Part shown: positions 4,111-36,947 of the stretch, in pieces
Position numbering within the stretch: the stretch's first letter is position 1
How the letters are laid out: each line of letters opens with the position of its first letter
Assembly (NCBI GenBank): GCA_964646425.1
Contig: CAZYEI010000001.1
Location: 4,731 to 68,730 of the forward strand
DNA from: an uncultured Eubacteriales bacterium
Lineage (GTDB): Bacteria; Bacillota_I; Bacilli_A; RFN20; JAISJY01
Direction: 5' to 3'
Length of the DNA: 64,000 bases
Program-made: the position numbers and the translations under genes
The notes under the pieces: generated by a model
Told to the model about the DNA's origin: nothing
Database searches by the model: none
The model's input: only the letters and a program-made list of their open reading frames with translations

Positions 4111-4146
4111 AAAAAGAAGTAGAATAGATTAATTTTTCTCTACTTC
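4111..4146 (-). terminator. Intrinsic terminator downstream of the GH5 gene
   Basis: A hairpin GAAGTAGA(4116..4123)...TCTACTTC(4139..4146) is followed on the minus strand by a U-run (plus-strand AAAAA at 4111..4115). Confidence 0.55.
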
Positions 4147-4161
4147 TTAAAAAAATATATC

Positions 4162-5553: not shown

Positions 5554-5565
5554 TTTTTAAATCCC

Positions 5566-6576: not shown

Positions 6577-6694
6577 TTTGGATTTCCTCCTAAAACATAT
6601 ATACTTTATGTAATAAAGTATATCATATATTTAAAAATATTGGAAACTTTTTCCACATAATTTCTTATTTAAAGAAACATTTAAGAAATAAATC

Positions 6695-7462: not shown

Positions 7463-7480
7463 TTTTTGTTTCCTTTCTTT

Positions 7481-7505
7481 TAAAAAGAGGCTTTAAAAGC
7501 CTCTT
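7481..7505 (-). terminator. Intrinsic terminator or attenuator after the 968-aa lipoprotein gene
   Basis: A hairpin AAGAGGCUU...AAGCCUCUU is followed by UUUUUA on the minus strand. The GH16 RBS follows directly after it. Confidence 0.5.
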
Positions 7506-7510
7506 ACTAA

Positions 7511-10417: not shown

Positions 10418-10436
10418 ATTATTCCTCCTAAAAAAC

Positions 10437-10448
10437 GAAATCGTTTTC
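10437..10448. promoter_or_regulatory. cre/LacI-type operator-like palindrome (GAAATCGTTTTC) in the 5'UTR of the 968-aa lipoprotein gene, just upstream of its RBS
   Basis: The near-palindrome AAACGAAATCGTTTTC has a central CG. It matches the cre consensus TGNAANCGNWNNCW with one mismatch and shares its core with the sites at 10478 and 30074. Confidence 0.4.
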
Positions 10449-10463
10449 TCTAATTACAATTAT

Positions 10464-10492
10464 AATATAGCATTTTTTGAAATCGCTTTCAA
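10464..10492 (-). promoter_or_regulatory. Promoter of the 968-aa lipoprotein gene (TTGAAA-17-TATATT). A cre-like site, TGAAAGCGATTTCA (10478..10491), overlaps its -35 element.
   Basis: On the minus strand, TTGAAA (10492..10487), a 17-nt spacer and TATATT (10469..10464) form the promoter. The 14-mer TGAAAGCGATTTCA fits the catabolite-responsive-element consensus exactly. Confidence 0.5.
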
Positions 10493-10604
10493 TGATTTAT
10501 CGTTTATTTTTTTATAAAAAATAGAAATATTTCTTAAAATAATTAATTTAAATGGAAATGTTTCCAAAATAAAAGAAGCAAGTTTCCTTACTTCTTTAAA
10601 AAAT

Positions 10605-13781: not shown

Positions 13782-13793
13782 ACTTAATTCCTC

Positions 13794-14984
13794 CTATAAA
13801 GCAGAAATTTCTTCTGCTTGGTATACACGAACATAATCAATTACAAATTTGGGACCGATTCCATTTTCATCAAAAATAGAATCATCAATTCCTTGGGCAC
13901 CACCCCAATTACCACCCCACGCAAAATTAAGGATGATAAAGAATTCTTGATCAAATGGCCATGACTTATAATCTGGACAAGCCACATGGCTATTTGGATT
14001 ATATGTATAATATGGATTACCATCAACATAATAAATTATTTTATCTGGCAACCATTCGGTAGTATATGTATGATATGTATCATATATATCGCTCAATTTT
14101 GTAGAGCCACCTTTTTGTAAACCATTCCCCCCATTGAAACTAGCTGTATGGATAGTTCCATGAATTACATTTTCACTATAGCCAACGGTTTCCATAAAAT
14201 CAATTTCTCCAGTATCTGGCCAACTCTTTTTACCATAAACACCAGTGTTTGGCAATGCCCAAAAAGCCGGCCAAGTACCTTTTCCTCTAGGCATTTTAGC
14301 TCTTATTTCAAATTTACCATATTTATATTTGACTTTATTTCTAGTAATAAGTCTTGCAGAAGTATAACTTGAACCTTCATATTCTTCTTTTCTTAATGTA
14401 ATAGTCAAATTTCCATCTTCGACTTTAGCATTTTCTTCTCTATTTGTATAATATTGAAGTTCGTTATTTCCCCAACCCCAACTACCAGTACCAATCTCCG
14501 GTGTCCAATAATCACTTGTAGGAAATCCTTCATAATCAAATTCATCAGACCATACTAATTCATAATTCAAAGTATCATAATTATAATTAAAATTATTAGC
14601 TTTACAAGCACTTGTTCCCTTACCAATAATTACAAAATAATAACCAGTTGCAGTCAAGCCACCACTATCTTCAACTGTAAATGTAACTTTATATTTATTA
14701 TCAATATTTAAGGGGATTGAATCTACATAATTTTTATTATCATAATCATAAATAGTATATGTAATTTTATCAGTTAAATTTCCATCTTCAGTATCATAAG
14801 CAGTAACATTTAACATAACATTATATGTTCCTGAAGATTTAGACGGCATTCTATCAAATAGACCACTTAGTTGTGGAGCCGTATTATTTTCATTATTACT
14901 TGAAGATGTTCCATTTCCTTGACATCCAACAACAGAACAACTTAGCACAAATAACAATCCTAATATTTTTATTTTACGATTCAT
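13794..14984 (-). CDS. Secreted glycoside hydrolase family 16 lipoprotein (laminarinase) with an extra N-terminal beta-sandwich domain
   Basis: A lipobox is present (VLSCSVVGC). The GH16 motif GEIDFMETVGY occurs in the C-terminal domain. Confidence 0.8.
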   Translation of the reverse strand: MNRKIKILGLLFVLSCSVVGCQGNGTSSSNNENNTAPQLSGLFDRMPSKSSGTYNVMLNVTAYDTEDGNLTDKITYTIYDYDNKNYVDSIPLNIDNKYKVTFTVEDSGGLTATGYYFVIIGKGTSACKANNFNYNYDTLNYELVWSDEFDYEGFPTSDYWTPEIGTGSWGWGNNELQYYTNREENAKVEDGNLTITLRKEEYEGSSYTSARLITRNKVKYKYGKFEIRAKMPRGKGTWPAFWALPNTGVYGKKSWPDTGEIDFMETVGYSENVIHGTIHTASFNGGNGLQKGGSTKLSDIYDTYHTYTTEWLPDKIIYYVDGNPYYTYNPNSHVACPDYKSWPFDQEFFIILNFAWGGNWGGAQGIDDSIFDENGIGPKFVIDYVRVYQAEEISAL

Positions 14985-15001: not shown

Positions 15002-15991
15002 CTATTGTCCAGTTAATCCTGTTTGCTCGATACCTTCAACGAATTGTTTTTGAAGAACTGCATATAAAATTAACAATGGAATAATTGAGATTAAAGTTCC
15101 CGCCATTCTTTTTGCTTCGTTAACCATCTCTTTGTTTCCTTTATCAACACCACCAAGCAATGTATCAATGGCATTTAATTGATTTGGCAAAATTTGTAAG
15201 CCACCAGCTAAATAATATTGAGTTCCTAAAGTATCATTCCAATTCCAGACAAATGAAAACAAAAAGACAGTAATAATGATTGGAATTGATAATTTAAAGA
15301 TTACATGATAGAAAGTTTGGAAAGATGTCGCACCATCCATAATTGATGCTTCATCTAAGTCATAAGGAATTTGTTTAAAGAAACTATAACAAATTAAGAT
15401 TAAAATAGTTGAATAAACACCTTGTCCAAATAATGCTAATAATATTTGTGGAAGCACTGTTCCAATCAATTTAATTCCAAGTTTATCATAAATAGTTGTA
15501 AAAATCATTCGACGAGGAATAATTAACATTGGTGCCGGAATAATAAAGGCAGCAATTAATAACCCCCACCAAAACTTTGCCCCCTTAATTTTATATCTTG
15601 CTAAGGCATATCCAGCTAAAGCAGATATAATTGTTTGGATAAAAGCAAGTAAAAATGAGAACCAAACTGAATTAAGCAATGATGTTAAATAATCTAATGC
15701 AAGATAAGCTGCTTTATAATTAACAAATTGCCATTTCTTTGGTAATACTATTACTTCCGGATCAACTAAATCAGAACTTGATTGAAATGATGTGAAAAAC
15801 ATATCTAAAATCGGTTCTAAAAATACAAATGCAATAACAATTAACAATGCATAATAGACAAGCATTGGTAAAAATCCATCACGTAATCCATTACCAAATA
15901 AAAAATTCTTAATCTTTACCCAATTTATTTTCTTAAATTTTTCATATAATGCAACACCAGCATTTTTAATTTTAGTAACTAAATTTTTCAT
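15002..15991 (-). CDS. Carbohydrate ABC transporter permease (MalG/CUT1 family)
   Basis: Multiple TM segments and the EAA-loop motif EASIMDGATSFQTF are present. I moved the start to the ATG at 15991..15989 (MKNLVTK...), which has the Shine-Dalgarno sequence AAGGGGGG and lies 2 nt after the upstream stop. The longer ORF-track start at 16048 overlaps the upstream gene by 56 nt. Confidence 0.85.
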   Translation of the reverse strand: MKNLVTKIKNAGVALYEKFKKINWVKIKNFLFGNGLRDGFLPMLVYYALLIVIAFVFLEPILDMFFTSFQSSSDLVDPEVIVLPKKWQFVNYKAAYLALDYLTSLLNSVWFSFLLAFIQTIISALAGYALARYKIKGAKFWWGLLIAAFIIPAPMLIIPRRMIFTTIYDKLGIKLIGTVLPQILLALFGQGVYSTILILICYSFFKQIPYDLDEASIMDGATSFQTFYHVIFKLSIPIIITVFLFSFVWNWNDTLGTQYYLAGGLQILPNQLNAIDTLLGGVDKGNKEMVNEAKRMAGTLISIIPLLILYAVLQKQFVEGIEQTGLTGQ

Positions 15992-15992
15992 T

Positions 15993-17108
15993 TTAATTAC
16001 CCCCCTTAGAAACATCATCATGTTGCTTCTTAAATTTTTTATTTTCACGTTCTAATTTTTTTCTACGAAGTTCAACTTCCTCTTCATGATCAAGTTGAGC
16101 CCTTCTTAAAGCTTTCATTTGGCGTCTTTGTGAAGCTTGTACACTTCTTAATTTTTTATTTCTTGCTTCAGATTCTTTTCTACCCATATTTTGAGTATAA
16201 GTAATTACCTCTTTAACTTTCTTTTGTCTAGGAAGTAAAATCAAAGCAAATAAACCAATCATTAATAAAATAAAGATTGTCATAATAAAGGCCATTGCTG
16301 CAGCTAAACCTTCTTGATTTATTGTAGTAATCATATTGTTCATAATTGTATATAATTGACTAGTTGGCAAAGTAGCAACTTGTACAATTGAAAATACAGC
16401 AATAATCATAGCAGTAGAACGCACATTAGGAATAGTTATTTTCCATAAACATTGCCATGAAGTTGCTCCATCAATTTGAGCAGCAGCATACAAATCTTTA
16501 CTAATCTTTTGCAATGCATTAATAAATAAAACAATAGGAATACCTGTAAGCCACAAAATTACGACAAACTCATCAAATATTGATTGAACTGCATTAGCAA
16601 GTGGCATACTATAGGAAGAAATAATTCTAAAAAGAAATGAAGTTTGCTCAGGGCCTTCAATAATATTTCCTGTTGTTCCTGTAGTAGTTGATTCAAATAA
16701 CATAGTTATTAATGCACCAGACATAATAATAACAGGCATAAAATAAATAGTTCTAAAGAATCCTCTACCTTTAATATTTTTATTTAATATTATTGCTAAG
16801 ATAAAAGAGATAACTAAGATAATCGGAACATAAATAATTTCCGTTTTCATAAAATCTCCAATTGCTGTTAAAAATGAAACATTTTGTGTCAATGCATTAA
16901 CAAAATTCTTTAAACCATTAAAAGTAAAATGATAGCCATGCACATCATGTTTAACAGTTGAGAAACTCATAATGACAGCAATAATAAAAGGTATAAATGT
17001 TAAAAATACAGCACCTATAATCCATGGAGAAAGGAAAGAATATCCTAAAATATTCTTTCTTTTAGCATTTTCATTTTTAAATTTATATTTTTTTGTTTTT
17101 TCTCCCAT
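15993..17108 (-). CDS. Carbohydrate ABC transporter permease (MalF/CUT1 family) with an unusual ~85-aa Lys/Arg/Glu-rich C-terminal tail
   Basis: The EAA loop AAAQIDGATSWQCLWKITIPN is present. I moved the start to the ATG at 17108..17106 (MGEKTKK...), which has the Shine-Dalgarno sequence GAGGTG and lies 1 nt after the upstream stop. The tail RQKKVKEV...RRKKLERENKKFKKQ looks like a charged coiled coil. Confidence 0.85.
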   Translation of the reverse strand: MGEKTKKYKFKNENAKRKNILGYSFLSPWIIGAVFLTFIPFIIAVIMSFSTVKHDVHGYHFTFNGLKNFVNALTQNVSFLTAIGDFMKTEIIYVPIILVISFILAIILNKNIKGRGFFRTIYFMPVIIMSGALITMLFESTTTGTTGNIIEGPEQTSFLFRIISSYSMPLANAVQSIFDEFVVILWLTGIPIVLFINALQKISKDLYAAAQIDGATSWQCLWKITIPNVRSTAMIIAVFSIVQVATLPTSQLYTIMNNMITTINQEGLAAAMAFIMTIFILLMIGLFALILLPRQKKVKEVITYTQNMGRKESEARNKKLRSVQASQRRQMKALRRAQLDHEEEVELRRKKLERENKKFKKQHDDVSKGGN

Positions 17109-17109
17109 A

Positions 17110-19557
17110 TTATAACACCTCGAATCCTTGAGCTGAAACTTTTGTTTCACCATAAGTAAGAGGTGAATCACTATAGTTTATTACAATTTTCTTTCCATTA
17201 CTATATTCATTTACAATTAAACCATTTTCTAATTTTGTACGATTAATCCAATCTGCATTAATTACTTTTCCTAAAGCACTATCAACTTGTGTATAAATAT
17301 TCTTAATCATCTCTTTATATAATGAATATTCAGTTGAATAATAATTTGAACTATTAGTATATGATAAATAATGCGAAGATTCTTGGCTTAAAACAAATGA
17401 AGGATAAACATTAAAATCTATCATTTTTAAAATACTTTCTTGATCATAGAAACTAAAATTACTATATGGTGCATATAGTTCCATACAACCATTTAAAACT
17501 AATTGTAGTAGTGGGATTTCTGTTTCTTCAATTAAATGTTGACTATTAAATACCGGAATATTGAAATATCTATCAACATATTTCCATAAATATTTATTTG
17601 GTTGTTCAGCATTTACCATACCTTTTCCATCTAAATATTTAAAAGCATTTTCAATATTTTCCATTGCTTTTTCTCTAGTGCCTTTATTATTTGATAAAAC
17701 ACGATTTGAAATACCAGTTACAGTCATTGAATTAATATTAGTTTTTTTACTTAATTCCTTATTTTGTGACTTAACCCATTTTAGTGAAGCATCACTTCTT
17801 GCATAACCAAATTCATTAATAAAGTAATGATTAAATGAAGTATATTCAATATATTTTCCATTATAATGTTTTGTTGCATTACCACTGAAACTTATTTGAC
17901 TTTCATTAATTAAGAAATAATCTTGGGAGAATGAAACATCAACATTTTGTTTTTCCATACTTGAAATTAATGATTTATATTCACTAGCAGTTCCTATTTT
18001 ACTTGTAAAATCTGCTTTATCAGGTCGTCCCAAAGTAATTCCTCCACTTTGCCAACCTAAAAGAGAAGTAACAATGTTGTCAATTCCATTATTTAAAGAA
18101 TCGTTTAAAATTGCTTTTACATCATTTGCTGTTGTTACAACAGCATCACTTGTCCCAAGAACACTTTCTTCAGCATCAGCCATAATGAAGTCTAAACGAG
18201 TAATAATATGCTCATTTTCAAAATTTTTCTTTGTTAATTGTTTTTCTTCATTTATTAAATAATCACGATAAGCCTTAGCAACACCAACATAGTTAGCATT
18301 ATCTCCTTCTAAAAAATCATAACGCATACCAATATCATAATCAAATGGATTATCATTTAATACCGGTGCACTAGATGTGCCATCTTGAGAATAGTATTCA
18401 GTATAATCAAAATTTGTTCTAAATGTTGCATATGCATAAATATAACTATCATTATCCGCGTTATCCGGACTAACATTAATAGCCATATGTTGTTCACCTT
18501 TAGTTGCATAAGCTACAACAGCTTTTTGTGAATTAGTTGCAGTTTCATTATGAACAACACCAAACATTGGCATTGATGCATCTTTCAAAGGAACCGTTGT
18601 TCTTCCTGATTCTGGACTATAATGTTGTTTATTTGTAGTATAATTTTGACCATATACATATGACTTATATACGCCAAGAGTTACATTACTATCTACAAAT
18701 GGAATAATTGCACCTGAACCATCAGGAACAATTATATATCCTTTAGCCATTTCTTTACTTATTTTTGTCTTAGTATCATAATCACCATTTTCAACAAATG
18801 TCTTAATTGTTTCTCCAGTTTCCGGATCAGTTGAATCTGATTCAACTTTTTTTGAAACAAATGGGCTACCTTCTCCACCTGTTGCGCCAATAAATGGGGC
18901 TATTGTTATATCTATTAATCTGTTTTTATCTGCACCAGTAATTTCTTCGTGACGAAGTTCAAATTCAATGCCTTTTTCATCAAAATAAATATGAACAGAA
19001 AGATTAATATCAGCCCATACTCCAATTTGAAAATCTAAACGATAGTGAGTATCACTATTATCGATTTTCATTAAAGTAGACTTACCATATTTTGGATTTT
19101 CATGAGCACTTGAAACTTTAAATAAATTAGTCATTGCTTTATCATCTTTTTTATAAATATATGCAGTAACTAAAGAATTGATTATTGAGTTTCCTGTTGT
19201 ATCTTCATATAAATCACAAACATAATTTGGATCAGCATTCATTGCCTTTCGACATGCATCTCTTGCTTCTCTTTTTGTTTGATAAGGAACATCAGCTCCT
19301 GTTTTCCATAATATTTCTTTTGAATTAACATCTTGAATTTGAATAATATCTAATGATTCTTTATATGAATATATATATTTACTATTACGATATAATTCAA
19401 CATATGTATCTTCATCCTTTGAAGATATGGCAGTTTTGGCAATTTCTTTTGTTGAGTTGTTATTTGCTTCTTCATTTCCAGCAATATTAATCAATGAAGA
19501 TAAAGGAAGCAAAAATACAATTAGTGCTAAATACTTAATTTTTTTAACTAATGACAT
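17110..19557 (-). CDS. Secreted protein of unknown function (815 aa) encoded within the ABC transporter operon
   Basis: The signal peptide MSLVKKIKYLALIVFLLPLSSLINIAG follows a strong Shine-Dalgarno sequence, AAGGAGG, and the start overlaps the upstream gene by 14 nt. I recognise no catalytic motif. It may be a DUF-type glycan-processing or glycan-binding protein. Confidence 0.5.
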   Translation of the reverse strand: MSLVKKIKYLALIVFLLPLSSLINIAGNEEANNNSTKEIAKTAISSKDEDTYVELYRNSKYIYSYKESLDIIQIQDVNSKEILWKTGADVPYQTKREARDACRKAMNADPNYVCDLYEDTTGNSIINSLVTAYIYKKDDKAMTNLFKVSSAHENPKYGKSTLMKIDNSDTHYRLDFQIGVWADINLSVHIYFDEKGIEFELRHEEITGADKNRLIDITIAPFIGATGGEGSPFVSKKVESDSTDPETGETIKTFVENGDYDTKTKISKEMAKGYIIVPDGSGAIIPFVDSNVTLGVYKSYVYGQNYTTNKQHYSPESGRTTVPLKDASMPMFGVVHNETATNSQKAVVAYATKGEQHMAINVSPDNADNDSYIYAYATFRTNFDYTEYYSQDGTSSAPVLNDNPFDYDIGMRYDFLEGDNANYVGVAKAYRDYLINEEKQLTKKNFENEHIITRLDFIMADAEESVLGTSDAVVTTANDVKAILNDSLNNGIDNIVTSLLGWQSGGITLGRPDKADFTSKIGTASEYKSLISSMEKQNVDVSFSQDYFLINESQISFSGNATKHYNGKYIEYTSFNHYFINEFGYARSDASLKWVKSQNKELSKKTNINSMTVTGISNRVLSNNKGTREKAMENIENAFKYLDGKGMVNAEQPNKYLWKYVDRYFNIPVFNSQHLIEETEIPLLQLVLNGCMELYAPYSNFSFYDQESILKMIDFNVYPSFVLSQESSHYLSYTNSSNYYSTEYSLYKEMIKNIYTQVDSALGKVINADWINRTKLENGLIVNEYSNGKKIVINYSDSPLTYGETKVSAQGFEVL

Positions 19558-21658
19558 TTCTAATCGCCTCCTTAAACAACGAACCAACATAATCAATCAA
19601 ATCACCAGCAAGCATTGTAATTATTAATATTACTAATAAAATTATCAACATAAATCCGATAGTAATAATAATACTCTTTATTGTTTGCCAGAAAGTATAA
19701 TTATGAATATTTTCAATACCCATAAAAATCATAAATCCTGTTAACCCAATTCCAGCATATTGAATTACTTGTAATAAAAAAACATCATCATATGTCAAGA
19801 AATGAGATAATATTGTAACAACAATCATTGAAATCATCCATGGAACAAGTGAATATCCAATCGTACGATAAATTGAAATCATTGTTCCTTCACCATCTTG
19901 AATAGAGGTTACCATATAATTACAATATATAAATAAACCAATAATGCCAACATATCCAGCAGTTAAAGCAATAAAGTCAACTTCAAAGGCTTCGACATAT
20001 TGATAGATAAATCCTTTACCTATTGTATACCATAAGAAAACTGCAAATGTAATAATATATAAAACTGTTGCCGCTAAAGTTGAACCTCTTTTTCCAGCCC
20101 TTAAATCATAAAAACTATCAGTTGGTTTCACTAATAATTGGTAAGTAAATTTTAAATCTTTAACCAGTTTAACATTATCTACCTTATTTTTAGCATTAAC
20201 AGCCACAGCTAAGCAATTAGTTCTCTTATGAACTTTCTTTAATATTACAATAGCAATGATTGCAATAAATAAAATCACTAATGCTGTAACTAAGTTATTT
20301 TGAATCCAAATATTACGAACTTCCCAATAAGCTTTTGAATATGATTGTCTATTTCTCGCAATTTCCAAATGGTACATTGCACTTTCATAATCTTCATTAT
20401 ATAAGTAATTTAAACCAATGTTATTATGAGCAAGTGAAGACATTTGATTCAATTCAATTACTTCTTCCCATAATGCAATTGATTCATCATAATGACCTAA
20501 ATCATATTCAGCAAGTGCTGCATAGATTTTTTTAGAGTAATCAGTAGGTGTAAAAGTGTGAACTGCAGCTTTTTCACTATCTAAACACCATATTTTTCCA
20601 TTATTATCAACAGCAATAGAAACTAATGAAGAGAACAATCCATCAATATCTTGAGTACTATCAGGTGTTTTACCACCAAACACACATAAAAATTCACCAT
20701 CATTAGTGTAAATATAAATATATCCATCATTACTTGCAGCATAAACAATACCTTGAGAATCAACATAAATATCAACTGGTGAGTTTGAAGAAACTAGATC
20801 ATACTTTGTAAATTGATTTACTCCTGCAGTATTGTGTTTTTGAATAAAAGCATAAGGTTTTGAATAATTTGTTGTAGTGTATAATAAACCATCTTTATCA
20901 GTAAATAAATTACTAAATAAAGGTGCTTGAATTGCTAAACCTAAATTTTCTTTTTGTTCTGTTGTAAATAGAATATCGTAAATATAATCCATAATTCCTT
21001 TAGTAACTTTGTTTGTTGCAAAATAGCCAAGGAATGAACCTTTCTTATCTAATTGAATTACACCATCGCCAATTCCATCTGCGATAACATAAACATTTCC
21101 ATTAATGTCGGCAGAAACTTTAGAAGGTTCAAAATCACGATCTCTAAATAAAGTGCTTGTTGGTTTTCCAAAAGCTGTATAATACTCAAATTTAGATGAT
21201 GAATCATTATATTGATAAATATATACATTTCTTGCTTCAGAATCCGCAATATAAAGCAAACGATTATTTAATTCGTTATTATATGTTATAAATACACCTC
21301 TAGGATTTTTTATATTTTCTCCTTCAATTGTATATAACAAATTCATATTATCATCAAAAACACGAACAGCACCCAAAGTATTTTTATCTAATTTTGAATC
21401 TGCAATATAAATAATATTGTCTTCATCAATAAAAATATCGTTTGGTTTATTTAGTCCAATATCTGTTAATGTTTTATTTGGTAAATAAGCATCTTGAGTT
21501 CTAATTAAACCATGTCCTCTTGCATCAAGAGAATATGTATATGATGTTGCATTTCCACTCATTTCTACTACCATAATATCTTTATTTTTTGGGGCCATTG
21601 CGAAACAAGTGAATAAAATAAGGACAACCGCAACAAATCCTTTTAATTTCATTTTCAT
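19544..21658 (-). CDS. Signal peptide + NHL/beta-propeller-like repeats + TPR + C-terminal polytopic Yip1-like membrane domain (704 aa)
   Basis: An N-terminal signal peptide (MKMKLKGFVAVVLILFTCFAMA) is followed by repeated ...IYIAD/VYVIAD/IVYAASNDGYIYIY... blades typical of NHL/YVTN propellers. TPR-like helices follow (ALAEYDLGHYDESIALWEEVIEL...NNIGLNYLYNEDYESAMYHLEIA), then a TM helix and a region of about 5 TM segments resembling the Yip1/DUF1282 family. The ORF is adjacent to, or overlaps, both neighbouring genes. Confidence 0.55.
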   Translation of the reverse strand: MKMKLKGFVAVVLILFTCFAMAPKNKDIMVVEMSGNATSYTYSLDARGHGLIRTQDAYLPNKTLTDIGLNKPNDIFIDEDNIIYIADSKLDKNTLGAVRVFDDNMNLLYTIEGENIKNPRGVFITYNNELNNRLLYIADSEARNVYIYQYNDSSSKFEYYTAFGKPTSTLFRDRDFEPSKVSADINGNVYVIADGIGDGVIQLDKKGSFLGYFATNKVTKGIMDYIYDILFTTEQKENLGLAIQAPLFSNLFTDKDGLLYTTTNYSKPYAFIQKHNTAGVNQFTKYDLVSSNSPVDIYVDSQGIVYAASNDGYIYIYTNDGEFLCVFGGKTPDSTQDIDGLFSSLVSIAVDNNGKIWCLDSEKAAVHTFTPTDYSKKIYAALAEYDLGHYDESIALWEEVIELNQMSSLAHNNIGLNYLYNEDYESAMYHLEIARNRQSYSKAYWEVRNIWIQNNLVTALVILFIAIIAIVILKKVHKRTNCLAVAVNAKNKVDNVKLVKDLKFTYQLLVKPTDSFYDLRAGKRGSTLAATVLYIITFAVFLWYTIGKGFIYQYVEAFEVDFIALTAGYVGIIGLFIYCNYMVTSIQDGEGTMISIYRTIGYSLVPWMISMIVVTILSHFLTYDDVFLLQVIQYAGIGLTGFMIFMGIENIHNYTFWQTIKSIIITIGFMLIILLVILIITMLAGDLIDYVGSLFKEAIRNVIS

Positions 21659-21659
21659 A

Positions 21660-22538
21660 TTATTTAATACCTGAATGAGCCATAGTATTCATAACTTTAC
21701 TTTGCATGAAAATAAAGATAATTAAATTTGGCACAAAGATAATAACAGACGCTGCAGCTTGCATACCGACCCCAATAATGCTATTTCCTGTAGTCGTCAT
21801 TGTTAATGTATTTAAGTAATAAGCAAATGTTTTTAGCGATTCTTCTTGAATGTATAAAGAAGAAGTTGAAGTATTATTCCAAACGCTTTGGAATGTTAAA
21901 ATACCTACCGTTGCAATCGCAGGTTTAATAATAGGAACAATTATCTTCCAGACAGTTTGGAAATCATTTGCACCATCTAACTTAGCTGATTCAATTAATT
22001 CATCTGGTGTTTGGTCCATAAATTGCTTAACTAAGAATAAACCAACTGGCATTGCAACAAGTGGAATTATATTTGCCCAGAAACTATTAATTAATCCAAT
22101 TTTACTAATAATAAAATAAGACGGAATTGAAAGAGCAGTACCAACAAACATAAGTGCAGTTTGATTTATAGAAACTAATTTACCACAAAATTTAAAATGC
22201 TTTTTTGATAAAGCATATGCTGCGAGCACTGTAATAACCCAGTTAATTAAAACCGTTAATACGGTAACGACAATTGAATTAAATAAATATCTAGACATTG
22301 GAATAAAGGTTGTTGAACCAGCCTTAAATAATCTTTTAAAATTATCTAATGTTGGATTTTGAACTAAAAACTTTGGTGGGAATGCAAATAATTCATCTAA
22401 AGGTTTTAGTGAGTGACAAAAAGTATATATTAAAGGTAAAATCATAAATGCTGCAATTGGAAGCAAGATTATATAAAATTTAATTTGGGATTTTGAAAAC
22501 TTTTTAGGGTTTATTGTGGATCCACTTAATTTTGCCAT
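21660..22538 (-). CDS. Carbohydrate ABC transporter permease (LplC/MalG-like, CUT1)
   Basis: The EAA loop ESAKLDGANDFQTVWKIIVPI is present, with 6 predicted TM segments. Confidence 0.85.
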   Translation of the reverse strand: MAKLSGSTINPKKFSKSQIKFYIILLPIAAFMILPLIYTFCHSLKPLDELFAFPPKFLVQNPTLDNFKRLFKAGSTTFIPMSRYLFNSIVVTVLTVLINWVITVLAAYALSKKHFKFCGKLVSINQTALMFVGTALSIPSYFIISKIGLINSFWANIIPLVAMPVGLFLVKQFMDQTPDELIESAKLDGANDFQTVWKIIVPIIKPAIATVGILTFQSVWNNTSTSSLYIQEESLKTFAYYLNTLTMTTTGNSIIGVGMQAAASVIIFVPNLIIFIFMQSKVMNTMAHSGIK

Positions 22539-22550
22539 ATACTACACCTC

Positions 22551-23522
22551 CTAATCCTTTTCACCAAATAGTTTATATGCAATTTTAGTAAAAATCATAA
22601 TAATTGCTAATAAAACTACTGATAATGCTGCTGCATAACCCATTTCATAACGTGCATAACCATAATCATCAATATGGTTAATAATCAATTGTGCTGAATA
22701 TTCAGGAGTTGGGTTTACTCCAGAAAGAGCAACACCTATACCTCCATTATTAAATGCACTGACAATTGCCATAACTGCTCCAAATAGCATTTGTGGTTTC
22801 ATGTTCGGAATTGTTACATACATAATTTCTTGAAATCTATTTTTTACGCCATCTATATGAGCTGCTTCATATTGTTCAGCATCAATATTAAGCATACCAG
22901 CTAATGTACTTAAAAAACCAACTCCCATTGAACTCCATAGAGCAACAACAATAACAATGGTCATTAAATACTTTGGATCTTGTAAAAATTGAATTGGCGT
23001 ATCTATTAATCCTAATTGCAATAAGATTGAATTTATATAACCACTTTGGTCACCTGAGAATAGTGTTTTCCAAATTACAGCCATAAATACACCACCAAGC
23101 ATACTTGGCAAATATAATATTAAAGCTAAAACTGTTCTAGGTTTATGTGGTAATTGAGCAAGCATCCATGCCAACATAAATGAAATTATATAACCACCAG
23201 GGCCAGTAATAATTGCATATTTAAATGTATTTGGCAATACATACTTTAAAAATATTTCATCTTGAGTTAATAAATAAATATAATTATCTAATCCACTAAA
23301 TTTTGGACTTTCAATAACGTTAAAAGAGGTAAATGAAAGACCGATTGCCACAGCAACTGGAATAGCAATGAATATACAGAAAAGTAATGCATAAGGTAAT
23401 AGCATAATAATGGTAGCACCCAAATCGCTAAATGTCATTCTTTTTAAGCGATTCCAAGCTGTATTTATGTAGCCACCTACACTCTTTCTTTCTTTAATTT
23501 CTTTTATTTTCTTTTCTTTCAT
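22551..23522 (-). CDS. Carbohydrate ABC transporter permease (LplB/MalF-like, CUT1)
   Basis: The EAA loop [22 protein letters not shown] is present. The N-terminal basic extension is typical of LplB-type permeases. Confidence 0.85.
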
Positions 23523-23524
23523 AA

Positions 23525-25153
23525 CTAATTACCTTTATTTTGGGCAATCATTTTTTCCACCCAATCTCTTTCTCTAATTGTATAACCATCTGTATAACCA
23601 AATTCTTCTAATTTTCTTGTTATTTCTCTATTTATTGAAATAACTGCAGTATCAATTGATCCCCTAACAGGTTCGTTGCTTAATACAACTTGTGTCCAAA
23701 TATTACTTAGTCCTCTTTCTAACATATATTGTCCTGGAGTTCTAGGAATATCGATAATATATTCAAGAGAATTTAAAATAACTTGTTTATCTTTTGAATC
23801 AATTGGCGCATTGGCAACTGCTTCTAGATTACAGCTTAACCATAAATATTCAGGTCCATATGTAGATTGCAAAGTATAACCAAATTCTGTTTGAACTTCA
23901 GTTGAAGTCCACCATTTTAAGAAATCCCAACATCTTTCAGCTTTGTTAGTATCAGCAAATATCATCGATGCAGAACCATTACTGATATATGTTCTATTTA
24001 TTGAACCATCATCTTGTTCTGTTCCAAGAGGCAAAGTAATTTGCCATTTACCATTTAATTCTGGAGCTGCATTTTTCATCATCAAGTAATCAGAGAATGA
24101 AGCAGTTCCAATTGGTTGAGTTCCATTTCTAAATGAATTATAGAAACTTTGAACTTGCGTTGATAAAGAATATTTTGTAAATAATTCTGTTAATTGAGTT
24201 ATTCCCTTAACAGCTGCTTCTGAATTAATAGCAGTAGCAGTTCCATTTGCATTATATAATTGTCCACCATTTTGATAAATCAATGGTGCAGTTTGATAGA
24301 ACCACTTAGTTGCATTTGTAGCACTAATTTGCATATAGTAATTCATTCCATATCTTTGTAATGTAGGAAGAATACCAATCATTTCAGTATAAGTATTTGG
24401 AACATCAATATCAAATGAATTAAAAATATCTTCACGATACATCATAACATTAAAATCAAGTGTTTCAGGTAATCCGTAAACTTTATCATTTAAAATATAT
24501 GATACTAAAGTTCCTGGAGCAAAATGGTTATCACTCATAACTTGCCAAAAATCTTCAAATTGAGTCATATCATATGCTGCATTTCTAACTGCAAAATCGA
24601 ATGGCATATGTGAACCAAGTCCCATAGCCATATCTGGTGTTTCGCCAGCAGCATTTGCCAATAATAATTTTGAAGCATCAGGCATAATTGCTAATTTTAC
24701 TTTGGTTTCCGTAGTATTAAATTCACGATCAATCATATTTTGCATAATATCAATGTAGGTCATTGGTCTATTTACCCAAATTGTTAAAACATTAGGATCT
24801 TCATCATCCAATGATTGTTTATACTTATCAGAAAAGAATGAATCCAGTAAGATTGTTGCATCAGCACCTAAAGTAACAAAAACATTTTTAGTTGCTCTTG
24901 GCAATTTAGTTTTTCCATAAACATACATCATATCTAAAGATATTGCTTGTCCAGAAAATGAAGAAATACTTTCACCAACAAGAGCGTTTATAGAACTTGT
25001 ACCACTATATAAATTTTCTAAATATAGAGGCAATTCATCAGGCTCTTCCATTAATTCTTCCAAAGTAGCAATTGCTTTTTGCACATATGAAAGTAATGAA
25101 GAATCAGCACCTTTTTCAGAATAAATTTTTCCTCTTGTAATTATTGCTTTCAT
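23525..25153 (-). CDS. Family-1 extracellular solute-binding-protein-like domain protein (LplA-like). It has no signal peptide of its own and no RBS.
   Basis: The 542-aa product has the size and composition of LplA-type oligosaccharide-binding proteins and is coupled to the permeases, with a 2-nt gap. The sequence upstream of its ATG (TATTTAAAAGCTTATGATACTTTAATG) has no Shine-Dalgarno element. It is in frame with the upstream ORF across a single TAA. Confidence 0.6.
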
Positions 25154-25177
25154 TAAAGTATCATAAGCTTTTAAATA

Positions 25178-26521
25178 TTATGAAGTTTCCGGAATATATT
25201 TTGTCAATTTCCAATCTTTATCCATATCAATATCATTTCCAGTAACTTTTAAAATTTCCAAGGCAAAATAATTTATATGATCAACAATTAATTGCAAATC
25301 GTTAATTAATGATGCCATATTTTCCATTTCAGCACGTAAAGTAATTTCATGTTTTCCAGCACTTAAATATACATAATATGGATTGCCATCATCATCTTGT
25401 AAATGGGTATTGCTCCATGTATTTCCAGTATGTGGGAATGAATAATTTTGTAACTCAGCAAATGGAATAACTCCATCTATATAGACACTTCTAAAAGCAT
25501 CATATTCATTTTTATCGTTAATATAATGGAATCCCAATTGATAATATCCGGCAACTTCTACCTCTACTTCATATGTTATACTTTGTCCGGCTTTTTGCCA
25601 TGATGTTCCAGAAATTACATTTAATTTTTTAATATCAGTTGAATATGGAGTAACATTTGGAGTTGACTCACTTTCTAATCTTACGTATGAAGAATTTTTT
25701 TCTATATATTCTGTTGCATTAATTTTGTAAAGAGATTTTTGTAAACTTTGTTCGCCATATTTTGCTTTTATTTCATTTTGATAATTAGCATAGGAAACAA
25801 TTTTTTGTGGGGACTTTGCTTTTAATTGTCCTAACGCTAAAACACCACTGCTCGAAATAGAATTAATTGTTATTTTATTTTCACCATTTTCTAAATAAAA
25901 AAGTAAAGGAGTAGATGATTTATATTGATTGTCATACATTTGTAATGACATCCATTCATCTATTCTAACACTTGATGGAATAGTCTCATCGCCATAAGAA
26001 TCTAAAGGAAAATCTTTTGTTGAATCTTGCCAGTATAAAGGAACATCAATTGTAGATGCTTCACTATATTGATATTTATCATTAATTTCAATTCCTATTG
26101 TTTGATTGGTTAAAACATTATCTCCTACAACTCGATAATCAACTTCAATCTCATATAATCCTGATGTTGGAATATCAACTAAATAGTCAACACTTTCACC
26201 ATATTCAATAGTATAGATATTTCCATTAGAATAGCCATAATTATTGTTCTCTTGATTAGTTTTTGAAGACATTGAAGCTATTTCACTATCCTTCAATGAA
26301 TAATTAATATCTTTTTCACCTAAAAAATCAACATATGTTGTTTCGTGTTTAAAACTACTCGTTTCAATAGATTTAACCAGTAAATCATATGCATTTTTTC
26401 TTTCTTCTTCATTTATATTAAAATCAGGAGCAGAACCACTATTTGCTATTACTACTACTCCAACGGATAATAGTGCAATTAAGGTAACAATCGACACTAC
26501 TCTTTTTGTTTTTCTTCTCAT
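25178..26521 (-). CDS. Membrane-anchored extracellular protein of unknown function. Its frame continues into the SBP-like ORF downstream. It may be the N-terminal half of a tethered SBP gene that is disrupted or read through.
   Basis: I placed the start at the ATG 26521..26519 (MRRKTKRVVSIVTLIALLSVGVVVIA), which has the Shine-Dalgarno sequence AAGGTGGGG. The ORF-track start at 26557 has no SD and lies inside a hairpin. After the single TM anchor the body is rich in beta strand. The ORF ends ...KYIPETS-TAA, then continues in frame with [13 protein letters not shown]... Confidence 0.5.
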   Translation of the reverse strand: MRRKTKRVVSIVTLIALLSVGVVVIANSGSAPDFNINEEERKNAYDLLVKSIETSSFKHETTYVDFLGEKDINYSLKDSEIASMSSKTNQENNNYGYSNGNIYTIEYGESVDYLVDIPTSGLYEIEVDYRVVGDNVLTNQTIGIEINDKYQYSEASTIDVPLYWQDSTKDFPLDSYGDETIPSSVRIDEWMSLQMYDNQYKSSTPLLFYLENGENKITINSISSSGVLALGQLKAKSPQKIVSYANYQNEIKAKYGEQSLQKSLYKINATEYIEKNSSYVRLESESTPNVTPYSTDIKKLNVISGTSWQKAGQSITYEVEVEVAGYYQLGFHYINDKNEYDAFRSVYIDGVIPFAELQNYSFPHTGNTWSNTHLQDDDGNPYYVYLSAGKHEITLRAEMENMASLINDLQLIVDHINYFALEILKVTGNDIDMDKDWKLTKYIPETS

Positions 26522-26560
26522 AATTAACCCCACCTTAATTAATTGTAAAGACTGCATAAG

Positions 26561-26587
26561 AGTAGGACAAAAAATGTCCTACTCTAT
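26561..26587 (-). other. Intercistronic stem-loop GAGUAGGACA-uuuu-UGUCCUACUC immediately downstream of the SBP gene
   Basis: A perfect 10-bp stem is visible, with no clear U-tract after it on the minus strand. It may act as a 3'-stabilising or processing element. Confidence 0.45.
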
Positions 26588-26610
26588 GTATCTTTTATTT
26601 AAAATATTAA

Positions 26611-28305
26611 TTAGAAATCAGACTCATTAAAGCCATAATAAGTAATCAATGATTGACGAATTAAACCAAATGCTTGCTCATAACGACCATTAATTACATC
26701 ATTATATTCGCTTAAGAACGCTGTATATGTGCTATACCAGTTCGGACTATCAATTGTAACACCTACAACATCTTCAACACCAAAGTTATCAATTTCATGT
26801 AAAATAGAAACTGTTTCTCCACCATCGTTCATATATTCTCTAGGGAATGCCTTATCTGAAACACCATAAATTTTTCCTTCTCCCCAAAGTCTAACAACTT
26901 CAGCAAATCCAGGGAATTTTTCAGCATCTGCAAATTCCATATGTCCAGGAGTAGATAACCAAATTTCCATTTGTTTATCATAATCATCACCCTTTGAAAT
27001 TAAAGGGAAAGATTGAGGAGTTGCATATGCATAAACATAATTACCATCATCATCTAATGTATCGGAATATTGTTGTTTACTTGCAGCTTCCCATGCATCT
27101 GTACTTGTTAGCCAGAAAGCAGTGAATGTATAGGCAATATCCATCTTCTTTAATTCAGCTTCACTACATGTATTGTTACCATCATCAGCACAATAGTTAT
27201 AAATAGAAATTGGATCTAAAACTACACCAACATGATTATCAACAATAACATCACCATTTGAATTTGTTAAAGCTGGACGAGGATAATAATCCCAATCATC
27301 TGATAATACTTCACTAGCTCCGCCTTCAGTATTTCCATAAACAAACATCCAAGGATGTTGATCAAGAGTTAGTAAACCACCTTTTGAGAAATAATAATAC
27401 TCATAATTGCCAAGTCTTGAAGTATAGTCTATAATTCCAGGATCAGTCCAATCTCCAGTAGCATTTTTAAAACTATATTGAGCTTGTTCAACAAGATTTG
27501 GAAGTGCTTGTTTAAAATCATCAGTAGCAAAATTTACATATGTTTCGCCACCTTCAAAATTTTGAAGTTGTGTTTCAATATATGCACCTTTTAGCATTGT
27601 CATACTAGCATCTAAGCTTCCATAATAAGAATAATCTACTTTATGTGAAACAAAGTCTGTGTAATCATCCCATGTCCAGTCAACATCTGGAGAAGCAATT
27701 TTTTGAGCTGTCGCTAATTCTCTATTTACATAAACTCCCCAAGGAATAGCATATTGAGGAAGCGCACCTTGGAATCCATAAAAATTACACATAGAAAGTA
27801 ATGATGGATTTAATTTCTTATATGCAGCATCATCTTTATATCTTGATAGATCTGCGATAATGCCTTGTTGCATATCATCATAAACATTTTTAGATAAGAA
27901 AATATCAGGATACGCTCCATTTGCAGCCTTATAATTTTCTAATTCAGCGCTCCAATCTTCCGGATCATCAGCTTTACTTGCTAAATTAATTTTAATATTT
28001 GGATATGTTTTATTAAATTCTTTAGCAATAGCATAAATCATTGCAGTATTAAATCCTGAAATTTCATTTGGTGCCCATTCAGCATGACCAATATCTTTAT
28101 GAGTTTGACCATCGCCAGCCCAAACCATAACAGTAATATCTCCACTTGTATTTTTATCAATTAAATCAGTTACTTGACCATTACCACCAGAAGCTGTATT
28201 ACTTGACTTATTTGGTTTTGAAGTATTACTGCCACCACACGCTGCAACTGACGTTAATAAAACTAATGAAGCAAGTAGAGTACTAAATTTATTAAATTTT
28301 TTCAT
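26611..28305 (-). CDS. Extracellular solute-binding lipoprotein (family 1, CUT1 oligosaccharide-binding)
   Basis: I placed the start at the ATG 28305..28303 (MKKFNKFSTLLASLVLLTSVAACGG, a lipobox), which has the Shine-Dalgarno sequence GGAGG 8 nt upstream. The ORF-track start at 28335 has no SD. An S/N/G-rich linker is followed by an SBP fold. Confidence 0.85.
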   Translation of the reverse strand: MKKFNKFSTLLASLVLLTSVAACGGSNTSKPNKSSNTASGGNGQVTDLIDKNTSGDITVMVWAGDGQTHKDIGHAEWAPNEISGFNTAMIYAIAKEFNKTYPNIKINLASKADDPEDWSAELENYKAANGAYPDIFLSKNVYDDMQQGIIADLSRYKDDAAYKKLNPSLLSMCNFYGFQGALPQYAIPWGVYVNRELATAQKIASPDVDWTWDDYTDFVSHKVDYSYYGSLDASMTMLKGAYIETQLQNFEGGETYVNFATDDFKQALPNLVEQAQYSFKNATGDWTDPGIIDYTSRLGNYEYYYFSKGGLLTLDQHPWMFVYGNTEGGASEVLSDDWDYYPRPALTNSNGDVIVDNHVGVVLDPISIYNYCADDGNNTCSEAELKKMDIAYTFTAFWLTSTDAWEAASKQQYSDTLDDDGNYVYAYATPQSFPLISKGDDYDKQMEIWLSTPGHMEFADAEKFPGFAEVVRLWGEGKIYGVSDKAFPREYMNDGGETVSILHEIDNFGVEDVVGVTIDSPNWYSTYTAFLSEYNDVINGRYEQAFGLIRQSLITYYGFNESDF

Positions 28306-28338
28306 TATTTTGCCTCCTATTTTACTAATTATCAATTC

Positions 28339-28368
28339 AAAGGTAACAACACTAAAGTTGTTACCTTT
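28339..28368. other. Perfect hairpin AAAGGTAACAAC-actaaa-GTTGTTACCTTT between the lipoprotein gene and the SBP gene
   Basis: A 12-bp stem is present. T-rich sequence follows it only on the plus strand. On the minus-strand operon transcript it would act as an intercistronic stability or processing structure rather than a terminator. Confidence 0.5.
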
Positions 28369-28378
28369 ATTTTTATTA

Positions 28379-30049
28379 TTAATTTTGAACTAATTTAACA
28401 TCCTTAATATAGAAAGTAATATCATCTGCTAATAAACCAAGTTCAATTGTTACCTTATTAACGCTATCGATTTCAGCAGCATTAATATTCAATGTAATAG
28501 TTTGGAAATCATTAGATGCAGATATTTCTGTTTCAGCATATGAAGTATAAGGATTTTGATTTTGAATAAAGGCAACCTTCATAGCGATACTTGTTTTAAT
28601 TTTGAATGTTAATGTATAAGAAAGTCCACCAATACATGGTAAATTATTCATATTTATTTGGTTAACATATGATTGTTCCCCTTTTCCTAAAGTATGAATT
28701 TTTACAGAGCCGTCTGTTTCATCGCTAAATGATTGTGTAATCCATGTTTCACACCATGAATCTTCTTTAAATTTAGCAGCATTATATGTTGGTAATAAGT
28801 TTGAACCAGCAGCAACAACAGTAATTGTACGTGAATCAGTAGTCTTATTTCCAGCAGCATCTTTTACTTCATAATTAACAGTATATGTTCCTGCTTTTGA
28901 AACATCTAATGTTGTAATTTCATTTCCATTATATGTTGCCTTAATATTAGCAGTTACATCACCATCAATATTATCACTAGCTGTTATTCCATGTAAAACG
29001 TTAAACTTTGTTGAAGATTCAGAAATTTTAATATTATTCATTCCACTAAATGAAGGTGCAGTTTCATCGACAACAGTGCCATCAAAAACGCCAACATAAA
29101 CATCTGTAAACCATAAAGTTGTCATTACATCTGCAGTTGGAGCAACTTTACCCATACTAAACAAGATTGAGCAACCATCTAATGTTGCATGAGTTGCAGT
29201 AAATGTATATTCAAATTCTTGCCAAGTAGAAGTAACTTCTGCAGTATAGATTTGTTGATCAGAAGTAAATCCTTCATACCAAGGAGATGCAGGCATTAAT
29301 TGACCAATAGAAACTTCGACGTATTTTGTAGTTAATGCTTTTGCTTTAAATGATACTTTATAATTTTGGCCACCAGTCATAGTAAAGCGCATATCTTCGC
29401 CACTGCCATTAGTTGCGTATGTTGCTGAGTTTAACCTTGGAGAAGATGCATTTGTCCAGTTTAATCCAGTCATAACAACTTTAGCAGCATTTTTGTTTTC
29501 TCCCATTACATCAGTTTTTTCAACTGAGAATTCGCCAGTACCACCTTCATGAGTAGCTAATTCCCAATCTTTTGTTCCTAGTTCAAAATTTGCATTTGAA
29601 ACTAGATTTCCAGCAGTAACAGTAGCTTCTATGATTTCAACATTTCTAGTAGCAGTTTCAGTTATTTCAACTCCACCAGTTTTAAAAGTTACTGAATAAT
29701 CAATTTTACAAGTACGAATTTCACTTGTATCAAGTAATTTTCCATTCAATGTACAATTAGATGTAGCGGTAGTTCTTGTCTTTAATTCAATACCAGTAGA
29801 AGTTAAAACACTAACTCCATCAAATACATTATAAGAGCTATGTTGTACAGCTTCACTTTCAACGCCAGAGAAATCATAAGCAATTGTTACTCCAGGGTTA
29901 ACATTAGTAGATTGTGAAGTACTTGGTGTGATAGACGGTGTTGATGTGCTTGATGAATTTGAAGTGGGTTTTGATGTATTATTTCCACCACAAGCAGCAA
30001 GAGCACATAACATCAATGTGGCAAGACTTGCCGTAAATATTTTTTTCAT
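28379..30049 (-). CDS. Surface lipoprotein with a DUF5011-type Ig-like domain and a CBM4_9-like carbohydrate-binding domain
   Basis: A lipobox is present (LMLCALAACGG). The segment ITASDNIDGDVTANIKATYNGNEITTLDVSKAGTYTVNYEVKDAAGNKTTDSRTITVV is a textbook DUF5011 pattern. The NANFELGTKDWE motif resembles the start of a CBM_4_9 domain. Confidence 0.6.
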   Translation of the reverse strand: MKKIFTASLATLMLCALAACGGNNTSKPTSNSSSTSTPSITPSTSQSTNVNPGVTIAYDFSGVESEAVQHSSYNVFDGVSVLTSTGIELKTRTTATSNCTLNGKLLDTSEIRTCKIDYSVTFKTGGVEITETATRNVEIIEATVTAGNLVSNANFELGTKDWELATHEGGTGEFSVEKTDVMGENKNAAKVVMTGLNWTNASSPRLNSATYATNGSGEDMRFTMTGGQNYKVSFKAKALTTKYVEVSIGQLMPASPWYEGFTSDQQIYTAEVTSTWQEFEYTFTATHATLDGCSILFSMGKVAPTADVMTTLWFTDVYVGVFDGTVVDETAPSFSGMNNIKISESSTKFNVLHGITASDNIDGDVTANIKATYNGNEITTLDVSKAGTYTVNYEVKDAAGNKTTDSRTITVVAAGSNLLPTYNAAKFKEDSWCETWITQSFSDETDGSVKIHTLGKGEQSYVNQINMNNLPCIGGLSYTLTFKIKTSIAMKVAFIQNQNPYTSYAETEISASNDFQTITLNINAAEIDSVNKVTIELGLLADDITFYIKDVKLVQN

Positions 30050-36188: not shown

Positions 36189-36947
36189 TTATTTAGAATA
36201 AGGATAATTTTTTTTACCAACATTATTATACGGAACAACCTTATGTCGAGGTAATTCTTGCGCAAGTCTTGTTATTTCACCTTGCAAATATTCACAAATA
36301 ACTTTTCTTTGTTCATTTATATCCATTTCAGGATTATACTCGATTGGTTTTCCAAATATAACTTCCTTTAATTTCGCAGCATTATATGTAGGAATAAATT
36401 TAAGTTTTTTACCAGTTTTCTTATAATAAAGCCTAGCCACATCTATAAATTTATTTTGAAATTCGTTAACTATATTATTATATGTTGCAGGACATTCTGG
36501 AAAAATAACAATATTAGCTCCTTCTTCTAACTTTTCTATAGTTTCTCGATATGTTGCCATTAATCTAACATCTTTATAAACTGCAATAGTATCTGCTTGA
36601 TTTAAAACATATGATGCAAGTGGAGCAATAAGATAAGATATAATTTTAAACAACCACTTAATATATTTAGGCTTCATGCTCCAAAAATCTTTATAAGCAT
36701 AAGCAGGCACTTCTTTGCATTTCATCATTTCGCCGATACACCAAATATATTTCTTTTTTGGAAAAAAAAGTTCACTGGCAAGTGGTCCATTCATCTGAGC
36801 ATGATTACCAACATAAATCGCAGGTTCTTCAGGCATATATTCTAGTCCCTTATATTCTCTTTTACGATAAAAAATGCCACATAATCTTCTTAGGAATTTA
36901 AAAAATAATCCTTTTTTCTTTGTTTCACTATATTTGCTCATTTTCAA
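36189..36947 (-). CDS. Acyltransferase-like protein (PlsC/LPLAT family candidate)
   Basis: The 252-aa product has a GNHAQMNGP segment resembling the NHxxxxD acyltransferase motif and a basic N-terminus. Confidence 0.4.
   Translation of the reverse strand: MKMSKYSETKKKGLFFKFLRRLCGIFYRKREYKGLEYMPEEPAIYVGNHAQMNGPLASELFFPKKKYIWCIGEMMKCKEVPAYAYKDFWSMKPKYIKWLFKIISYLIAPLASYVLNQADTIAVYKDVRLMATYRETIEKLEEGANIVIFPECPATYNNIVNEFQNKFIDVARLYYKKTGKKLKFIPTYNAAKLKEVIFGKPIEYNPEMDINEQRKVICEYLQGEITRLAQELPRHKVVPYNNVGKKNYPYSK

Follow-up and report, generated by a model that had tools for sequence, protein, structure and literature searches.

A gene for a membrane-tethered solute-binding protein interrupted by a single premature stop codon in an uncultured Eubacteriales bacterium

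The stretch of DNA analysed here, hereafter the window, comprises 64,000 nt at 29% GC of contig CAZYEI010000001.1 from an uncultured Eubacteriales bacterium. Two long open reading frames, ORF A and ORF B, lie in the same frame on either side of one TAA stop codon, and everything that belongs to them is on the minus strand of the window. Judged by comparison with related sequences, the interval 23525..26521 is one gene, not two, cut by a single premature TAA, and the position and uniqueness of this stop are shown by the orthologues. As modelled, the full protein is composed of an N-terminal transmembrane (TM) helix, two CBM35-like modules, a helical spacer and a MalE-like family-1 sugar solute-binding protein (SBP), so that the receptor is tethered to the membrane. 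The stop codon is probably a real and evolutionarily recent mutation, and we infer that it arose by a template switch.

One gene with an internal stop codon

The whole ancestral gene (23525..26521) contains ~997 codons that are collinear with homologues of ~1000 residues and are broken once, at codon 448. The longest call for ORF A (25178..26557, 459 aa) opens at an upstream ATG at 26557. The likely start is instead the ATG at 26521, from which ORF A (25181..26521) reads MRRKTKR and extends over 447 aa; the MRRKTKR start is common to all close orthologues. With the strength of a Shine–Dalgarno (SD) sequence expressed as the energy of its duplex with the anti-SD sequence, the ATG at 26557 scores +1.5 kcal/mol vs −7.7 kcal/mol for the ATG at 26521, which is preceded at a distance of 6 nt by the SD sequence AAGGTGGGG (26528..26536). 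ORF A encodes the TM or signal-anchor helix, the two CBM35-like β-sandwiches and the first helices of a linker bundle (residues 400–447), and ends ...KYIPETS at the premature TAA (25178..25180). Past this stop, the frame continues for eight codons, YLKAYDTL (25154..25177), which have homologous counterparts in the intact proteins, and then reaches the next ATG (25151..25153), which is the product of a window-specific Leu-to-Met change. ORF B (23525..25153, 542 aa) begins there and holds the remainder of the helical bundle and a complete MalE-like family-1 (CUT1) SBP domain (~23528..24940). A preliminary description of the interval had given this layout, and all of its elements are present.

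The start and export signals of the two ORFs are very different. Most genes in the window have SD duplexes of −7 to −13 kcal/mol, and the median over all ATGs, taken as background, is −1.6 kcal/mol. The ATG of ORF B has no SD, its duplex of −0.7 kcal/mol being weaker than that median. ORF B also lacks a signal peptide: the maximum 19-residue Kyte–Doolittle mean within its first 60 residues is 0.59, whereas ORF A reaches 2.91 and the neighbouring lipoprotein 1.76. Both absences had been claimed in the preliminary description and are borne out by these values. Extracytoplasmic targeting is therefore missing from ORF B as encoded and is provided only in the uninterrupted protein, through the TM helix of ORF A.

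The in-frame position of two neighbours across one stop is no evidence by itself, since five same-strand pairs in the window, ORF A and ORF B included, are separated by a single in-frame stop, and in the remaining four pairs an SD precedes the downstream gene. The case of ORF A and ORF B is significant because homology runs on across the stop. When the concatenated protein of ORF A and ORF B was used as a query, all 96 homologues were collinear across the junction; 95 were single proteins of 926–1103 aa and one was a partial record. Coverage was 85–100%, save for the partial record (74%), with E-values down to 0, and the full-length homologues of the family span 24–87% identity. The four closest homologues, of 996–997 aa, share 85–87% identity with the query over 100% of its length. 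The contigs that encode the closest homologues represent three lineages (L001, L002–L004 and L005–L007) and are syntenic with the window over ~19 kb. In all three lineages the large gene is uninterrupted (996–997 codons; intact in L001, L002 and L005). Aligned to the TAA of the window, these lineages have AAA, GAG or AAT, and the preceding codon is GAA in place of the TCA of the window; in the family as a whole, the column at the stop position is occupied by E, S, D, Q, K or N.

Similarly, more distant loci in the species-representative genomes of GTDB have one open frame over the whole match in 16 of 17 cases. The exception, L011 (contig CAYXQG010000008.1 of an uncultured Acetatifactor metagenome-assembled genome, MAG), carries a lone in-frame TAG (L011:9020..9030, LPELQR*GMNFY) that replaces a conserved Tyr (family consensus QRY). 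Its site differs from that of the lesion in the window, and the two stops are independent. A search with the N-terminal half alone against 1.84 billion cluster representatives returned 1413 relatives; of the best 150, 107 were 900–1100 aa long. Shorter matches to the N-terminal module had scattered lengths and ran into SBP sequence or garbled tails, as fragments produced by contig ends and frameshifts do, and a stand-alone class of ~447 aa was absent from the best 150 of the 1413 representatives. No NCBIfam model matched the full protein or either half.

The preliminary description had preferred to see the two ORFs as one split gene for a TM anchor, a β-rich domain and an SBP, a view upheld by the 95 single collinear homologues among 96 and by the intact syntenic orthologues at 85–87% identity. 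It had also named the comparison of orthologues with the concatenated protein beforehand as the check, and that comparison found uninterrupted single genes. Orthologous loci made up of two genes, each with a ribosome-binding site and a signal peptide of its own, were looked for, and the opposite was found.

Domain architecture of the intact protein

The architecture was derived from an AlphaFold2 model of orthologue P0001 (87% identical; predicted local distance difference test score, pLDDT, 88.5; predicted template modelling score, pTM, 0.81) and from a model of ORF A of the window itself (pLDDT 89.9). The P0001 model consists of a TM helix (residues 3–27), two β-sandwiches (~100–235 and 263–397), a helical bundle (399–522) and a two-lobe domain (527–997); in ORF A the β-sandwiches are bounded by residues ~100–237 and 262–398. 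The N-terminal helix may be an uncleaved anchor or a cleavable signal peptide (with the cut between VIA and NS). The linker domain, residues ~400–522 (24953..25324), is made up of helices 399–426, 438–441, 445–466, 477–491, 493–505 and 510–522 in the P0001 model. The stop, at residue 448, falls inside the helix 445–466 of this bundle and not at a domain border, which argues against a functional two-gene design.

The C-terminal part is readily recognised as an SBP. ORF B matches the Pfam families SBP_bac_8 (69.2 bits, cut-off 27) and SBP_bac_1 (63 bits, cut-off 26), the two-lobe domain of the P0001 model aligns with MalE, CbpB and Lin1841 at target-normalised Foldseek TM-scores of 0.7–0.83, and the family profile retrieves solved SBPs from the PDB at E-values from 7.8e-28 (Lin1841) to 2.8e-20. 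The nearest solved relatives are CUT1 oligosaccharide SBPs. Lin1841 (5ysb, β-1,2-glucooligosaccharides), CbpB of C. thermocellum (7x0i, cellodextrins) and MalE have the same two-lobe fold as the C-terminal 470 residues of the protein described here, at ~14–21% identity over the listed matches. However, the solved CUT1 SBPs are lipoproteins or periplasmic proteins of ~400 aa, to which this protein adds an N-terminal extension of 520 residues and a TM anchor.

The extension resembles a carbohydrate-binding region. The family profile finds the CBM35 of cycloisomaltooligosaccharide glucanotransferase (5x7g) in the PDB at an E-value of 4.5e-9, and the ORF A model matches the CBM35 modules 2vzp, 2w1w, 2w47 and 2w3j with a Foldseek probability of 1.0 and target-normalised TM-scores of 0.58–0.72. 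Both β-sandwiches of ORF A have the CBM6/35 jelly-roll fold of known CBM35 modules (2vzp, 2w1w and the cycloisomaltooligosaccharide glucanotransferase modules 3wnk and 5x7g). They differ from these in being part of a transporter receptor instead of a glycoside hydrolase, and in a Pfam CBM_35 score that remains below threshold (16.7 bits, cut-off 28); some homologues carry a precomputed match to PF16990.

The protein belongs to a family of large SBPs in the Bacillota, with members in Paenibacillus odorifer (WP_052414505.1, 999 aa), Lachnospiraceae, Oscillospiraceae and Eubacterium album that are collinear with the gene of the window over their full length. They share with it the TM helix, the two CBM35-like domains, the bundle, the SBP and the downstream genes. 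Nearly all members are uninterrupted, whereas the copy in the window has a TAA at codon 448. The Paenibacillus odorifer protein and other cultured members are annotated merely as 'extracellular solute-binding protein'.

Age of the lesion

Codon alignments of the gene with its counterparts in the three intact lineages were used to obtain dN/dS, the ratio of non-synonymous to synonymous substitution rates. For the N-terminal half, dN/dS was 0.13–0.16 between the window and its relatives, vs 0.14–0.21 among the intact orthologues; for the C-terminal half, the values were 0.07–0.10 and 0.09–0.11, respectively. At columns where the other three lineages agree, the lineage of the window has 26 private amino-acid changes, vs 24, 56 and 35 in the intact lineages, and neither a second stop nor a frameshift is present over the 997 codons. 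The gene has been under normal purifying selection over essentially its whole branch. With a normal dN/dS, no excess of private changes and no other lesion, the stop must be recent or not real. An old pseudogene is excluded by the dN/dS values and the counts of lineage-specific changes. The gene resembles bacterial unitary nonsense pseudogenes in having a premature stop relative to intact relatives and a truncated product without the functional domain. Unlike older pseudogenes of this kind, it has no frameshift and a normal dN/dS, and it is at most a very young pseudogene.

Origin of the stop codon

The lesion consists of three substitutions within four adjacent bases, GAAA/G to TCAT, which replace Glu447 by Ser and turn the codon after it into TAA. 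The stop lies within a 23-nt quasi-palindrome, TCATAATATTT-A-AAAGCTTATGA (25161..25183), whose arms are complementary at 9 of 11 positions here and at 4, 5 and 6 of 11 in three relatives. Read as its reverse complement, the new TCAT is identical to a conserved ATGA (codons TAT GAT) located at the mirrored position, 15 nt downstream. All four window-specific nucleotides in the 23-nt segment add complementarity, and only 2 of the 2971 positions of the gene are palindromic to this degree.

Template-switch mutagenesis at quasi-palindromes is an established mechanism, described in E. coli (PMC7202029) and for mutation clusters in genomes (PMC9435742). In known template-switch mutations a cluster of substitutions makes an inverted repeat more perfect, and the bases introduced match the partner arm in exact reverse complement, as is the case in the window. 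A short intrastrand template switch at the quasi-palindrome would put TCAT in place of GAAA/G, and a single event of this type would yield both the Glu447Ser change and the stop. The candidate event differs from known cases in being read from a comparison at the species level (synonymous divergence, dS, ~0.8) and not from a parent–offspring pair, and in having one change in the opposite arm. No simple-sequence tract is present at the lesion, which excludes a phase-variable repeat.

The quality of the assembly bears on the same question. No other truncated gene was found among those checked, that is, the genes of the operon, by comparison with orthologue lengths, and other genes, by Pfam. The housekeeping genes ffh, ftsY, rnc, plsX, recG, trmD, rimM, hflX, pepF and asnS all have full-length Pfam matches. 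Because no other checked gene is truncated, the assembly does not appear to be error-prone.

Translation of the interrupted gene

If the stop is real, the translated product would comprise the anchor, both CBM35-like domains and a truncated spacer. For the SBP domain there would be either no translation or reinitiation at the ATG at 25153, and the reinitiated product would stay in the cytoplasm because it has no export signal. From the topology we infer that a real stop would abolish the function of the tethered receptor. The other genes of the operon, including that for the neighbouring lipoprotein SBP, are intact.

The ATG of ORF B arose by two substitutions, from TTA or CTA, in a column that is L, I, V or F in 51 of 51 aligned family members and never Met. 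The relatives lack ATG, GTG and TTG over the 20 codons that follow the site of the stop. Of the 26 lineage-specific changes, three fall within 12 codons of the stop (P ~0.03, estimated post hoc).

As to termination, 36 of the 44 ORFs of at least 120 aa in the window end in TAA, 8 in TAG and none in TGA. TGA interrupts no gene of the window either, and appears essentially unused in this 29% GC sequence. The tetranucleotide at the internal stop is TAAT, which is shared by 13 ordinary gene ends of the window and is an efficient, strong termination context in E. coli. In the 141 nt surrounding and following the stop, folding is no stronger than in shuffled sequences (z = +0.99), there are no tRNA genes in the window, and Rfam has no match anywhere in it. 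No orthologue has a TAA at this position.

Alternative explanations

That ORF A and ORF B are truly separate genes, for a stand-alone anchored carbohydrate-binding protein and a separate SBP, is hardly credible. Both ORFs are long and an ATG does come after the stop, but no stand-alone class of either half exists among the homologues, the split would lie inside a helix of a folded domain, ORF B has neither an SD nor an export signal, and the eight supposedly intergenic codons are homologous to coding sequence of the relatives; a natural two-gene form is ruled out by the orthologue comparison together with the search with the N-terminal module. Programmed read-through or recoding of the stop, which would give the full-length tethered SBP, could draw on the frame being kept across the stop and on both halves being intact. 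It is nevertheless very unlikely, because the stop is conserved in no orthologue (AAA, GAG or AAT being found instead), TAA is the main terminator of the organism, the TAAT context is that of normal gene ends, and no stimulatory RNA structure, tRNA gene or Rfam element was found in the window; the preliminary description had likewise ranked read-through as the less likely reading. Reassignment of the stop codon is excluded: TAA ends 36 of 44 ORFs, the window has no tRNA genes, and the genes checked are full-length under translation table 11. A further explanation accepts the stop as real and adds an accommodation, in which reinitiation at the lineage-specific ATG, 24 nt past the stop, would hold ribosomes on the mRNA, prevent polarity and maintain the translational coupling to the permease gene. 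The ATG is specific to the window and required two substitutions in a column otherwise without Met, the relatives have no start codon in the next 20 codons, three private changes lie near the stop, and the first permease gene, with a weak SD (−3.9 kcal/mol), abuts the SBP gene. However, no SD precedes the ATG at 25153, the statistics were computed after the fact, the protein made from this ATG would stay in the cytoplasm and be no working receptor, and the Leu-to-Met change is conservative, can be neutral and may predate the stop, which explains the ATG equally well. Such accommodation is improbable, and so is its extension, in which the operon runs on the lipoprotein SBP alone and the truncated anchor/CBM protein persists as a surface glycan binder.

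The remaining question is whether the gene is in fact intact, with the TAA, and perhaps the neighbouring TCA as well, stemming from a sequencing, consensus or assembly error or from a chimeric consensus of strain variants. Several observations weigh in this direction and against a real, recent mutation made by a template switch. The lesion is confined to a single codon of an otherwise perfectly conserved gene under strong purifying selection, and the family member in the MAG L011 likewise has a lone in-frame stop; such lesions occur in draft assemblies. Searches for an independent copy of the sequence of this strain found none: exact-protein look-ups of ORF B and both permeases gave no record, and a 30-nt pattern across the stop (with N at the first base) had no match in the genome or metagenome contig collections. 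Further, the chance of four out of four changes creating pairing, ~0.01, is a post hoc estimate for a pattern that was spotted after the fact, and one of the four changes is synonymous and in the other arm, which calls for a second event or a two-sided correction. The branch is long (dS ~0.8–0.9), so that a low dN/dS cannot date the lesion precisely, and the loss of function is a deduction from topology. Against an artefact stand the nature of the lesion, a block of three substitutions and not one miscalled base; the identity of this block with the reverse complement of nearby sequence, as a template switch during replication predicts; and the finding that none of the other genes checked in these AT-rich 64 kb is broken, frameshifted or split. 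An artefact is accordingly unlikely, though less so than any of the other alternatives, and a real mutation is favoured over a base-calling error because the lesion bears the signature of a template switch and the assembly looks clean.

The surrounding locus

The interrupted gene is part of an operon, and the gene order shared between the window and the syntenic contigs is AsnRS, PAP2, an Ig/CBM lipoprotein, a lipoprotein of 564–577 aa, the ~997-aa gene, two permeases, a Yip1/NHL/TPR protein, DUF5696 and two more permease-like genes. The neighbouring lipoprotein (26611..28305, minus strand as are all genes of the operon described here) has 564 aa from an ATG at 28305, a lipobox VAAC and an SD of −10.2 kcal/mol, and is a distant family-1 SBP: phmmer matches it to 22hh_A in the PDB ('extracellular solute-binding protein family 1', 2e-7), and its orthologues have faint matches to SBP_bac_8. 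It would be the second receptor of the locus. The dual-receptor arrangement proposed in the preliminary description is thus found, with a lipoprotein SBP adjoining the tethered one, and is kept in the three close lineages.

Directly downstream, two ATP-binding cassette (ABC) permease genes of the MalF/MalG type (21660..23522) encode proteins of 323 and 292 aa, whose orthologues are 93–97% identical and contain BPD_transp_1; permease 1 starts 2 nt past the stop of the SBP gene. As the surface receptor of a sugar ABC importer, the intact protein would hand oligosaccharides to these two permeases. They are followed by genes for a membrane protein with NHL, TPR and Yip1 domains (19544..21658) and a DUF5696 protein (17110..19557), found in the same order in the distant loci L013 and L022. 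After DUF5696 comes a second permease-like pair (15002..17171; ~329 and 371 aa from SD-supported starts) with weak matches to BPD_transp_1 (34–54 bits).

The core order of large SBP, two permeases, Yip1 protein and DUF5696 is kept down to 23% identity. The module as a whole (15002..30049 in the window, L013:6227..18959 and L022:7992..18492) includes a Yip1 protein (~700 aa), a DUF5696 protein (~800 aa) and one or more additional permease-like genes; a lipoprotein SBP is often encoded upstream of it. An ABC ATPase gene is absent from the module in the window and in the L013 and L022 loci. Searches of a literature library found no paper on DUF5696 and none on a YIP1 family protein together with an extracellular solute-binding protein, and those on CBM-fused SBPs returned nothing relevant.

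Further downstream of the SBP operon, on the same strand, are genes for glycoside hydrolases (GH) and a LacI regulator. This region (2809..14984) contains GH16 genes at 13794..14984 and 6695..7462, a GH5 gene at 4162..5553 and the LacI regulator gene at 5566..6576. The presence of GH16 and GH5 genes suggests that the locus is a β-glucan utilisation cluster, and the substrate is, on the same grounds, probably derived from β-glucan. The glycan locus also encodes a 968-aa protein with aBig_2 and F5/8 type C domains (7511..10417) and a 1058-aa ORF with a strong SD and no Pfam match at E ≤ 0.001 (10605..13781).

Elsewhere in the window, two ORFs of 306 and 252 aa (1862..2782 and 36189..36947) have no Pfam match at E ≤ 1e-5, and a BspA-type leucine-rich-repeat surface protein with a Listeria–Bacteroides repeat (38925..40427) is encoded among housekeeping genes (trmD, rimM, pepF).

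Implications

Annotations should join the two ORFs into a single disrupted gene, marked as having an internal stop, and should not describe them as a novel anchored protein next to an SBP without a signal. The interval does not amount to a new mechanism: an ordinary gene has recently been broken or, with lower probability, the sequence contains an error. If a template switch did create the nonsense codon, the lesion is a clean natural illustration of that process at a quasi-palindrome. For the organism, the probable outcome is the loss, in this strain, of one of two receptors from a β-glucan-type uptake locus, a case of ordinary, recent gene inactivation. Beyond this strain, the family of tethered CBM35–SBP proteins and their Yip1 and DUF5696 partners are widespread in the Bacillota, conserved and uncharacterised. 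Collectively, the tethered CBM35–SBP, the lipoprotein SBP, the NHL/TPR/Yip1 protein, DUF5696 and the second permease pair could conceivably constitute a distinct type of Gram-positive importer for the capture of polysaccharides.

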